DNA from: Escherichia coli
GTDB lineage: Bacteria > Pseudomonadota > Gammaproteobacteria > Enterobacterales > Enterobacteriaceae
Assembly: GCF_044647545.1 (NCBI RefSeq)
Contig: NZ_CP172818.1
Length of the DNA: 64,000 bases
Direction: 5' to 3' (one strand)
The notes beneath the pieces are model-generated. The model did not search any database. It was not told the DNA's origin and saw only the letters and a list, made by a program, of their open reading frames with translations. Made by a program: the position numbers and the translations under genes. Below, in pieces: positions 21,080 through 23,075 of the stretch (position 1 is its first letter; each line of letters begins with the position of its first letter).

Positions 21080-21535
21080 TTACAAATCATCAAGGAAAGT
21101 TTTATCCAGTTGTTTGAAGGCGCGCTTAAGCGTGTCAGCTAATGCCTGGTAATCAGGCTTGCCTTCAACGGGTGCCAACACCTGTCCAGACTCCTGTAAT
21201 TTACCGCGAACTTCATAAAACCAGTTGAGGATAGCAGGGGGTAATGGCGTTACAGAACGCTTGCCCAGCCACCACAATCCCTGCATGGGTAAACTTAAAG
21301 CGAACAGCGCAGTGGCAACTGCCGGCCCAAGCTGACCGCCCAGGGCAATCTGCCAGCAGAGAGTAAATACGGCGATCGGCGGCATAAAACGGATCGCATA
21401 ACGCGTCATCTTGATAACGCGATTTTCGACAAAGACCGGGGCAAGGCGTTTTTCCAGCGGCCACGTCTTTGAGTAATGCTGTCCCCGGCGAAACAAGCTA
21501 AAAAAATTAACAGAACGATTATCCGGCGTTGACAT
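21080..21535 (-). CDS. yfbV: Inner-membrane protein, UPF0208 family
   Basis: 151-aa ORF with hydrophobic segments; synteny. Confidence 0.88.
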
Positions 21536-21537
21536 GC

Positions 21538-21553
21538 TTCACCTCAACTTCAC
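21538..21553. promoter_or_regulatory. TTCAC-N6-TTCAC direct repeat (cre-tag-like, CreB-type site)
   Basis: ttcacctcaacttcac immediately upstream of yfbV start, in the yfbV/ackA divergent region. Confidence 0.4.
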
Positions 21554-21872
21554 ATATAAAGATTCAAAAATTTGTGCAAATTCACAACTCAGCGGGACAA
21601 CGTTCAAAACATTTTGTCTTCCATACCCACTATCAGGTATCCTTTAGCAGCCTGAAGGCCTAAGTAGTACATATTCATTGAGTCGTCAAATTCATATACA
21701 TTATGCCATTGGCTGAAAATTACGCAAAATGGCATAGACTCAAGATATTTCTTCCATCATGCAAAAAAAATTTGCAGTGCATGATGTTAATCATAAATGT
21801 CGGTGTCATCATGCGCTACGCTCTATGGCTCCCTGACGTTTTTTTAGCCACGTATCAATTATAGGTACTTCC

Positions 21873-23075
21873 ATGTCGAGTAAGTTAGTACTGGTTCTGA
21901 ACTGCGGTAGTTCTTCACTGAAATTTGCAATCATCGATGCAGTAAATGGTGAAGAGTACCTTTCTGGTTTAGCCGAATGTTTCCACCTGCCCGAAGCACG
22001 TATCAAATGGAAAATGGACGGCAATAAACAGGAAGCGGCTTTAGGTGCAGGCGCCGCTCACAGCGAAGCGCTCAACTTTATCGTTAATACTATTCTGGCA
22101 CAAAAACCAGAACTGTCTGCGCAGTTGACTGCTATCGGTCACCGTATCGTACACGGCGGCGAAAAGTATACCAGCTCCGTAGTGATCGATGAGTCTGTTA
22201 TTCAGGGTATCAAAGATGCAGCTTCTTTTGCACCGCTGCACAACCCGGCTCACCTGATCGGTATCGAAGAAGCTCTGAAATCTTTCCCACAGCTGAAAGA
22301 CAAAAACGTTGCTGTATTTGACACCGCGTTCCACCAGACTATGCCGGAAGAGTCTTACCTCTACGCCCTGCCGTACAACCTGTACAAAGAGCACGGCATC
22401 CGTCGTTACGGCGCGCACGGCACCAGCCACTTCTATGTAACCCAGGAAGCGGCAAAAATGCTGAACAAACCGGTAGAAGAACTGAACATCATCACCTGCC
22501 ACCTGGGCAACGGTGGTTCCGTTTCTGCTATCCGCAACGGTAAATGCGTTGACACCTCTATGGGCCTGACCCCGCTGGAAGGTCTGGTCATGGGTACCCG
22601 TTCTGGTGATATCGATCCGGCGATCATCTTCCACCTGCACGACACCCTGGGCATGAGCGTTGACGCAATCAACAAACTGCTGACCAAAGAGTCTGGCCTG
22701 CTGGGTCTGACCGAAGTGACCAGCGACTGCCGCTATGTTGAAGACAACTACGCGACGAAAGAAGACGCGAAGCGCGCAATGGACGTTTACTGCCACCGCC
22801 TGGCGAAATACATCGGTGCCTACACTGCGCTGATGGATGGTCGTCTGGACGCTGTTGTATTCACCGGTGGTATCGGTGAAAATGCCGCGATGGTTCGTGA
22901 ACTGTCTCTGGGCAAACTGGGCGTGCTGGGCTTTGAAGTTGATCATGAACGCAACCTGGCTGCACGTTTCGGCAAATCTGGTTTCATCAACAAAGAAGGT
23001 ACCCGTCCTGCGGTGGTTATCCCAACCAACGAAGAACTGGTTATCGCGCAAGACGCGAGCCGCCTGACTGCCTGA
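21873..23075 (+). CDS. ackA: Acetate kinase
   Basis: 400 aa; N-terminal [14 protein letters not shown] motif. Confidence 0.96.

Follow-up and report, generated by a model that had tools for sequence, protein, structure and literature searches.

Two inverted repeats stand in the spacer between yfbV and ackA of Escherichia coli, and the question is whether they serve as regulator sites on the DNA or as parts of the RNA transcribed from it. We addressed this question in a stretch of 64,000 nucleotides (contig NZ_CP172818.1 of assembly GCF_044647545.1), referred to below as the window. The spacer is 337 bp long (21536-21872), with yfbV on the minus strand (ATG at complement 21533-21535) and ackA starting at the ATG at 21873. 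The original prediction had placed two 8-bp inverted repeats 90 to 170 bp upstream of the ackA ATG and had likened them to dimeric regulator sites or structured DNA. We find both repeats at the positions given there, each one base longer than described (9-bp arms), and the distances agree as well: 137-171 bp for the first inverted repeat (IR1) and 87-118 bp for the second (IR2). Comparison of related sequences gives good support to the view that IR2 is a base-paired helix maintained by compensatory change across Enterobacterales. The explanation that we tentatively favour is that IR1 and IR2 are stems of RNA hairpins in the 223-nt ackA-pta leader, where they would shape the fate of the leader; binding of a dimeric transcription factor is unlikely. 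The two repeats, and a third one (IR3) absent from the original prediction, are the following.

21702-21710 and 21728-21736, plus strand: IR1, perfect 9-bp arms TATGCCATT and AATGGCATA, spacer of 17
21755-21763 and 21778-21786, plus strand: IR2, perfect 9-bp arms CATCATGCA and TGCATGATG, spacer of 14
21779-21786 and 21807-21814, plus strand: IR3, GCATGATG and CATCATGC, spacer of 20; it uses the right arm of IR2, and CATCATGC is a third copy of the repeated word

Two 9-bp repeats in this spacer are well above chance. Dinucleotide-preserving shuffles of the 337-bp spacer contained on average 0.18 perfect 8-bp repeats (spacer of at most 30), with a probability of 0.014 for two or more and 0.0006 for three or more; for 9-bp arms the mean was 0.04. 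The whole window holds only 21 9-bp repeats of this kind, and two or more occur together in 0.9% of 337-bp sliding windows. Among 5426 complete E. coli genomes, 5424 carry the spacer as a single copy with an identity of at least 99%. Because it occupies one place per genome, it is not a dispersed repeat of the kind of repetitive extragenic palindromes (REP) or bacterial interspersed mosaic elements (BIME).

The evidence for a helix comes from phylogenetic comparison. For footprinting we used AckA-anchored loci from 80 GTDB species, aligned upstream of ackA. The strongest conserved block, GCATGAYGTTAATCATAAATGTC (21779-21802), takes in the IR2 right arm and a palindrome, ATGATgttaATCAT, of the type bound by FNR. 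The first IR2 alignment comprised 35 species carrying this invariant block, and a metagenome scan for the block extended the set to 81 distinct Enterobacterales sequences in total. The parts of IR2 are as follows.

21755-21763, plus strand: left arm, 5' strand of the stem, covarying with 21778-21786
21764-21777, plus strand: loop, 10-16 nt across the 81 sequences; holds the remainder of an A8 run and a reported transcription start site (TSS) at 21775
21778-21786, plus strand: right arm, 3' strand of the stem; part of the invariant block, and overlapping the left half of the FNR-type palindrome

The A8 run itself spans 21763-21770, its first A doubling as the final base of the left arm; the A-rich 5' half of the loop is kept only in Enterobacteriaceae.

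Pairing is maintained far better than expected from neighbouring columns. Among the 35 species 93% of the alignment cells are paired, compared with 12-48% when the partner is slid by one to three columns (93-95% and 12-51%, respectively, across both tests). Changes on both sides of a pair were found in 12 cells, involving three pairs, and the covariation score of 0.227 (0.152 in shuffles) was reached by none of 500 shuffles. With 81 sequences, pairing amounts to 94.8% (648 Watson-Crick, 43 G·U, 16 C·A and 22 other cells). The varying pairs are pair 2 (A-U, G-C or G·U), pair 8 (C-G, U-A or G-C) and pair 9 (C-G, A-U or G-C). Pair 2 in the 35 species is A-U in 26, G-C in five, G·U in three and another combination in one, with no A·C. 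The exchanges can be followed by genus, with the left arm given before the right:

Escherichia: ..GCA / TGC..
Most genera: ..GCC / GGC..
Serratia: ..GTG / CAC..
One Enterobacter: TGGC / GCCA
Cedecea group: CG.. / ..CG
Pectobacterium: CATTGTGTC / GGTATGATG, all nine pairs kept, four of them as G·U

Folding leads to the same helix. RNAalifold returned it as the sole consensus structure for the region, and every one of the 35 species is predicted to form the hairpin (mean -11.6 kcal/mol, z about -3.9), including E. coli (-10.8 kcal/mol, z -3.2).

How does this bear on the suggestion that each repeat is the operator of a dimeric (or dimer-of-dimers) factor controlling ackA and/or yfbV? The compensatory changes, the G·U wobbles and the spacer of 10-16 nt fit an RNA stem-loop better than a rigid dimeric operator. 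The arm changes are complementary and include the transversions from TGCC/GGCA to TGGC/GCCA, so what is kept is the pairing and not a recognition sequence. The Pectobacterium arms illustrate this most clearly, sharing five of nine bases as a DNA palindrome and pairing at nine of nine positions as RNA. Moreover, the distance between the arm centres, 23 bp in IR2 and 26 bp in IR1, is unusual for a simple dimer. What fits the original assignment is that the IR2 right arm lies inside FNR-occupied DNA; the arms themselves behave as a base-paired helix.

IR2 is followed by a second helix (H2), found by folding both the leader alignment and E. coli 21750-21850, which encloses a TACGCT hexamer.

21795-21803, plus strand: H2 5' strand AAATGTCGG, pairing with 21833-21841
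21833-21841, plus strand: H2 3' strand CTGACGTTT, after which comes the rest of a U7 run; seen in the leader alignment fold and the E. coli fold

The local E. coli fold of 21750-21850 contains IR2 and H2 at -26.7 kcal/mol (z -3.0). H2 is paired in 91-92% of cells. Its exchanges are G-C to A-U and back at the innermost pair (21803/21833, beside the internal loop), and U·G to C-G or U-A and back at 21798/21838. For IR2 and H2 together, 93.2% of cells in the 81 sequences are paired, with 40 double-change cells compared with 10.8 in shuffles (none of 500 as good). Wobbles provide a clue to the strand. H2 has 100 G·U cells to 16 C·A cells, an asymmetry that points to the plus strand, that is, to the ackA leader RNA; the ratio for IR2 (43:16) likewise favours the plus strand. 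The U7 run after H2 is present in Enterobacteriaceae and is not kept in Serratia, Hafnia and Yersinia. As a separate observation, ATGTCG, the seed target of SdhX at the ackA start codon (21873-21878), recurs in the H2 5' strand of E. coli at 21797-21802, where most other genera have ATGTCA.

If the repeats act as RNA, they have to be transcribed. Published genome positions were converted by subtracting 2,389,619 from the NC_000913.2 coordinate to give the window coordinate; the ackA start of MG1655 is 2,411,492 in NC_000913.2 and 2,413,470 in U00096.3. Two ackA start sites are listed in the TSS-seq supplement of Kim 2012, one at 2,411,269 (window 21650, plus strand, 4 reads), which gives a 5' untranslated region (UTR) of 223 nt, and one at 2,411,394 (window 21775, plus strand, 5 reads), which falls in the IR2 loop. 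The same source lists two yfbV start sites on the minus strand, at 2,411,272 (window 21653, 69 reads) and, within ackA, at 2,411,815 (window 22196, 33 reads). The ackA 5'UTR of E. coli that Miyakoshi 2019 cloned starts with GCCTGAAGGCCTAAGTAGTAC (GCCTGAAGGCC...), which is window 21650, and a Salmonella yfbV TSS noted there lies inside the ackA coding sequence. Huang 2020 found an abundant p19-captured cluster of sense/antisense double-stranded RNA (dsRNA) at 2,411,203-2,411,785 (window 21584-22166). Olvera 2009 gives no ackA TSS, and the literature on oxygen-regulated promoters, CRISPR interference and antisense transcription that we consulted offers no promoter map for the region. The two promoters are the following.

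21614-21650, plus strand: distal ackA promoter, TTGTCT-N18-TATCCT with TSS 21650 (Kim 2012, Miyakoshi 2019); both hexamers conserved
21653-21689, minus strand: yfbV promoter, -35 TTGACG at 21684-21689, TSS 21653 (Kim 2012); GTCAAA conserved

A consensus promoter scan of 21400-22000 returned two weak minus-strand promoter-like matches only. By the published start sites and dsRNA data, the repeat region is transcribed on both strands. With a start at 21650 and a 223-nt leader, both repeats lie within the ackA mRNA, IR1 at +53 to +87 and IR2 at +106 to +137 of the distal transcript. 'Structured RNA' thus fits them better than the 'structured DNA' of the original prediction.

Two further observations concern the start of the distal transcript. 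The distal ackA TSS (21650, plus strand) and the main yfbV TSS (21653, minus strand) face each other 3 bp apart, so that each transcript crosses the promoter of the other and transcriptional interference is to be expected. In addition, the distal ackA transcript opens directly with a small hairpin, GCCUGAAGGC (21650-21659). The stem found at this place in other genera is longer, of different and covarying sequence (for example GGCCTGTAAGGCC, CGGCCTTTGATGGCCG and GCCGGCCTTTTGGCCGGT).

The same region is known for FNR control, and published data place FNR close to IR2. Grainger 2007 (chromatin immunoprecipitation, ChIP-chip) proposed the motif AAAATTTGCAGTGCATGATGTTAA (window 21766-21789), the TTGCA half of which is not conserved in our footprint alignment. 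Myers 2013 reported FNR ChIP-seq peaks at 2,411,404 and 2,411,410 (window 21785 and 21791) and a strong anaerobic sigma70 ChIP-seq peak at 2,411,411 (window 21792). Expression in delta-fnr relative to wild type was 0.11 for ackA, 0.10 for pta and 0.51 for yfbV, and the FNR site was placed at -74.5 (Table 1 of that study). This occupancy in vivo and the FNR-dependent expression concern the DNA around the IR2 right arm, not IR1. The conserved features suggest a somewhat different placement of the site.

21781-21794, centre 21787.5, no strand assigned: FNR-type palindrome ATGATgttaATCAT, matching 8 of 10 positions of TTGAT-N4-ATCAA
21817-21822, plus strand: invariant TACGCT, predicted -10 element of an FNR-dependent class II promoter with a predicted TSS at about 21829

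The palindrome is invariant in the 35 species, and other TGAy-N4-rTCA palindromes stand at its place in Erwinia and Pantoea, which lack IR2. A TAnnnT hexamer, mostly TACGCT, begins exactly 29.5 bp past the palindrome centre (centre to hexamer start) in about 37 Enterobacterales loci and one Vibrio. This spacing corresponds to class II geometry, with the site at -41.5, the -10 element at -12 to -7, a TSS near 21829 and a leader of about 44 nt. We infer a class II FNR promoter starting near 21829, a position that differs from the -74.5 of Myers 2013 and near which Kim 2012 lists no TSS. Placing FNR at 21781-21794 and -41.5 would imply disagreement with both the motif of Grainger 2007 (TTGCAgtgcATGAT core) and the position of Myers 2013.

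IR2 and the FNR palindrome are different palindromes, and the IR2 right arm overlaps the left half of ATGATgttaATCAT. Neither IR1 nor IR2 fits the FNR pattern, as no arms are 4 bp apart and no TTGAT or ATCAA words stand in register. IR2 does overlap a published FNR site; no factor or mapped site can be assigned to IR1. The operator explanation has points in its favour. The IR2 right arm is within DNA bound by FNR in vivo, and a published genomic-SELEX (systematic evolution of ligands by exponential enrichment; gSELEX) peak of the RpoN holoenzyme at 2,411,432 (NC_000913.2; about window 21813) and the FNR-dependent expression of yfbV indicate that proteins load in the spacer. IR1 could be counted in as well, with arms and spacer conserved and a position at -49 to -83 of the yfbV TSS, where activators bind. 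However, the palindrome that FNR would recognize is not made of the IR2 arms, no partner half-site lies 4 bp from the IR2 left arm, and no factor fits IR1, the sigma54, ArcA and NsrR patterns having failed by eye. Overall, we consider operators an unlikely explanation of the repeats.

The class II geometry brings in another possibility, namely that the repeats have no function as repeats. The alpha-subunit C-terminal domain (alpha-CTD) of RNA polymerase binds around -74 to -59 at class II promoters. With a TSS at about 21829 the IR2 left arm and the A-tract would occupy just these positions, and the arm might be conserved for an alpha-CTD contact beside the FNR site, its complementarity to the right arm and IR1 being coincidental. 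The conservation of the A-rich tract in Enterobacteriaceae and the presence of CATCATGC-like words three times in the region fit this idea. It fails to explain the double changes at three IR2 pairs, the lack of A·C at pair 2 and the 93-95% pairing, and two 9-bp repeats are unlikely by chance. We regard such a coincidence as quite improbable.

IR1 is less clear-cut than IR2: footprinting shows the IR2 helix kept across Enterobacterales, and IR1 confined to Enterobacteriaceae with weak covariation. Its parts are as follows.

21702-21710, plus strand: left arm; TGCCAYTG is conserved in Enterobacteriaceae, and the minus strand reads TGgCATAAT
21711-21727, plus strand: spacer or loop GGCTGAAAATTACGCAA, 17 nt in 57 of 62 sequences, with CTGAAAAnTnnGCAAAA conserved at least as well as the arms
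21728-21736, plus strand: right arm, folding with the left arm

In E. coli the IR1 hairpin is predicted at -12.2 kcal/mol (z -3.6). Across 62 Enterobacteriaceae-like sequences 78.9% of cells are paired, compared with 75.0% in shuffles, and 21 cells have double changes, compared with 6.3 (none of 1000 shuffles as good). These double changes are mostly one U-A to C-G exchange in a Cedecea-like clade. The repeat is perfect in Escherichia-, Enterobacter- and Leclercia-like sequences and keeps eight of nine pairs in those of the Klebsiella type. C·A combinations break it in Citrobacter, Kluyvera and Pseudocitrobacter, and outside Enterobacteriaceae it is absent.

The fixed, conserved 17-bp spacer makes a DNA-level site possible for IR1, the centre of which is at -66 from the yfbV TSS. 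One such possibility is that two promoter elements facing outward give rise to IR1 as a by-product. In the outward direction the arms read TGgCATAAT on the minus strand, towards yfbV, and TGgCATAGA on the plus strand, towards ackA (alternatively TAGACT), and they resemble extended -10 elements. The spacer contains the -35-like hexamers TTGCGT, and TTGGCT or CTGAAA, which would account for its fixed length. Conservation is in line with this: most Enterobacteriaceae have TAAAAT, TAGAAT or TAAACT for TARAMT at 21735-21740, with CTGAAA 16 bp upstream, and TGGCAKAAT is kept on the minus strand in Escherichia-, Enterobacter- and Klebsiella-like sequences. There is also a published sigma70 ChIP-chip peak at 2,411,364 (window 21745). 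On the other hand, Kim 2012 lists no TSS near 21745 (plus strand) or 21693 (minus strand), the consensus scan did not call these elements, and their hexamers are weak (3-4 of 6). The C-G for U-A exchange at one IR1 pair would be left unexplained. Outward promoters therefore seem to us an improbable origin of IR1. An RNA hairpin, back-to-back -10-like elements and a protein site are all candidate readings of this repeat.

The presence of IR3 raises the question of whether the leader could switch between alternative structures. In a leader attenuator, IR2 would be the 1:2 pairing, IR3 the 2:3 pairing and H2 with the U7 run the terminator, and together they would set read-through from the distal promoter into ackA. 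The topology is present in E. coli: the strand 21778-21786 is common to IR2 and IR3, IR3 would enclose the H2 5' strand, UUUUUUU follows H2, and IR3 appears in the minimum-energy fold of the full leader. Yet IR3 is not conserved as a helix, with 70.6% of cells paired, no double changes and a score under the shuffle mean. A scan of 21400-22000 found no intrinsic terminator; neither IR1 (loop of 17 nt) nor IR2 (loop of 14 nt) is followed by a U run, and H2 encloses 29 nt and has AU-rich base pairs. The three genera mentioned above have lost the U run that follows H2, no 3' end of ackA or yfbV appears in the supplements of Adams 2021 that were available, and leader-gfp fusions are expressed. We consider attenuation very unlikely. 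A search of 21400-22000 with Rfam 15 at permissive thresholds gave only a chance match to snoR66 (19 bits, E-value 0.31, gathering score 43).

A leader peptide is probably missing as well. A 53-codon open reading frame (ORF) at 21703-21864 has its ATG in the IR1 left arm and its stop codon at 21862-21864, so that it ends 8 nt before the ackA ATG. It is frameshifted even in E. albertii (a 1-nt length difference), which argues that there is no leader peptide, and by other indels in other genera. The invariant block shows no third-position variation. Probably, then, the frame is not coding, and the comparison points to no conserved upstream ORF.

We now return to RNA hairpins in the ackA-pta leader as the favoured explanation. 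Under it, the ackA-pta mRNA would start at the conserved distal promoter and carry both hairpins, with IR2 (a 9-bp stem and a loop of 10-16 nt) and then H2 forming a structured block immediately before the ribosome-binding region. The IR2 3' arm would have two roles, as a stem strand in RNA and as the left half-site of FNR in DNA, because the same DNA carries the FNR site and the FNR-dependent proximal promoter. By analogy with other leaders, the hairpins may protect the untranslated leader from 5'-end-dependent RNase E or define its processing by this enzyme, or they may keep the leader from interfering with the ribosome-binding site. IR1 could act in the same role, a tentative suggestion for a repeat limited to Enterobacteriaceae and weakly supported by covariation. 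The data show the repeats, their transcription (by published start sites), and their conservation, covariation and predicted stability; that the helices form in vivo, and what they do there, is what we infer.

Several points weigh against this explanation. The sequences are related, which inflates the shuffle-based significance, and there are perhaps 5 to 8 compensatory events that are independent. The homologues were chosen via the invariant block, which holds most of the IR2 right arm, so variation there is censored; Erwinia, Pantoea, Budvicia and Vibrio, which are without the block, have no equivalent hairpin. The predicted hairpin stability is equal on both strands, so that the wobble asymmetry is the only guide to the strand, and the antisense yfbV RNA crosses the region too. 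The minimum-energy fold of the full-length E. coli leader uses the IR3 pairing, and the ensemble is diffuse. IR1 gave no covariation signal in 21 Enterobacteriaceae (68.8% paired, 80 of 500 shuffles as good), and its fixed, conserved spacer is equally compatible with a DNA-level element. Finally, the distal ackA TSS is represented by just the 4 reads of Kim 2012.

Comparison with known systems helps to place the element. It most resembles the 5'UTR hairpins of ompA and other obstacles to RNase E scanning, as its hairpins stand in a long untranslated leader and show compensatory change, with no ligand-binding or terminator features. The hairpin at 21650-21659, exactly at the 5' end of the distal transcript, is another likeness to ompA-type leaders. 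Unlike in these leaders, IR2 is internal (+106) rather than 5'-terminal, and its 3' strand doubles as a transcription-factor half-site; for ackA such a role is proposed by analogy. The palindrome at 21781-21794 resembles class II FNR sites (TTGAT-N4-ATCAA near -41.5), with TAnnnT at class II distance, and according to the published data FNR occupies the ackA DNA and activates ackA-pta about 10-fold, as at class II FNR promoters. IR1 and IR2 differ from FNR sites, neither being the FNR palindrome and the IR2 arms lying 23 bp apart from centre to centre with a variable spacer. Like the trp or pyrBI attenuators, E. coli has three copies of one word allowing 1:2 and 2:3 pairings ahead of a hairpin and a U run. 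Unlike in these attenuators, the 2:3 pairing and the U run are unconserved, and there is no leader peptide, canonical terminator or reported 3' end. Perfect 9-bp inverted arms in a promoter region, and the fixed IR1 spacer, recall palindromic operators of dimeric regulators; the variable IR2 spacer, the complementary arm changes, the atypical arm spacing and the failure to find a cognate factor set the repeats apart from them. The element is best filed as an uncharacterised example of a conserved leader stem-loop. IR2 would then be a modest RNA feature, probably undescribed so far, in a promoter region that is otherwise well known: its promoter and FNR control have been established, and the conserved leader stem-loop would be new.

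A wider and doubtful proposal is that IR2, H2 and, in Enterobacteriaceae, IR1 make up an undescribed family-wide cis-regulatory RNA module. It would set the stability, processing or translation of aerobic transcripts from the distal promoter and be interleaved with the anaerobic FNR promoter. If this were true, one DNA stretch would hold two regulatory layers, and the module would be present or not according to the promoter used. The locus matters because ackA-pta, in controlling acetate overflow and acetyl-phosphate levels, has a central place in E. coli physiology and in bioprocess engineering. Should the leader hairpins prove important, distal (aerobic) and FNR-dependent proximal transcripts would be regulated differently after transcription, and the known control by SdhX and Hfq at the start codon would have a structured leader to act on.

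Some minor observations concern other parts of the spacer. Herron & Doebeli 2013 reported an identical +T insertion in two evolving populations at REL606 position 2,356,984. Anchored on pta codon positions, the insertion maps to about 21795. A T added after this position would turn CATAAATG into CATATAATG, creating a consensus TATAAT 16 bp past TTGCAG (21772-21777). The new TATAAT may be an alternative to the ArcA site suggested by Herron & Doebeli 2013 for this insertion. The suggested ArcA site itself is a poor fit by eye, as 13 bp instead of 11 separate its GTTAA and TGTC(A/G) repeats, and ackA is absent from the main text of Park 2013. The gSELEX peak led us to consider a sigma54 promoter as well, which we rejected: by eye there is no well-spaced GG-N10-GC motif, the TGGC...GC spacings being off by at least 1 in the candidates examined.

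The YfbV-dependent Ter-insulation site tidL is very unlikely to be located here. In papers from 2011-2013 the 8-mers of the inverted-repeat arms never co-occur with 'tidL', and a word search of the text of Thiel 2012 gives 'tidL' 22 times and never 'ackA' or 'intergenic'. At the other end of the spacer, TTCACctcaacTTCAC (21538-21553) is strongly conserved and adjoins the yfbV start codon and Shine-Dalgarno sequence. It fits the pattern TTCACnnnnnnTTCAC, which we take to be that of the CreB 'cre tag'.

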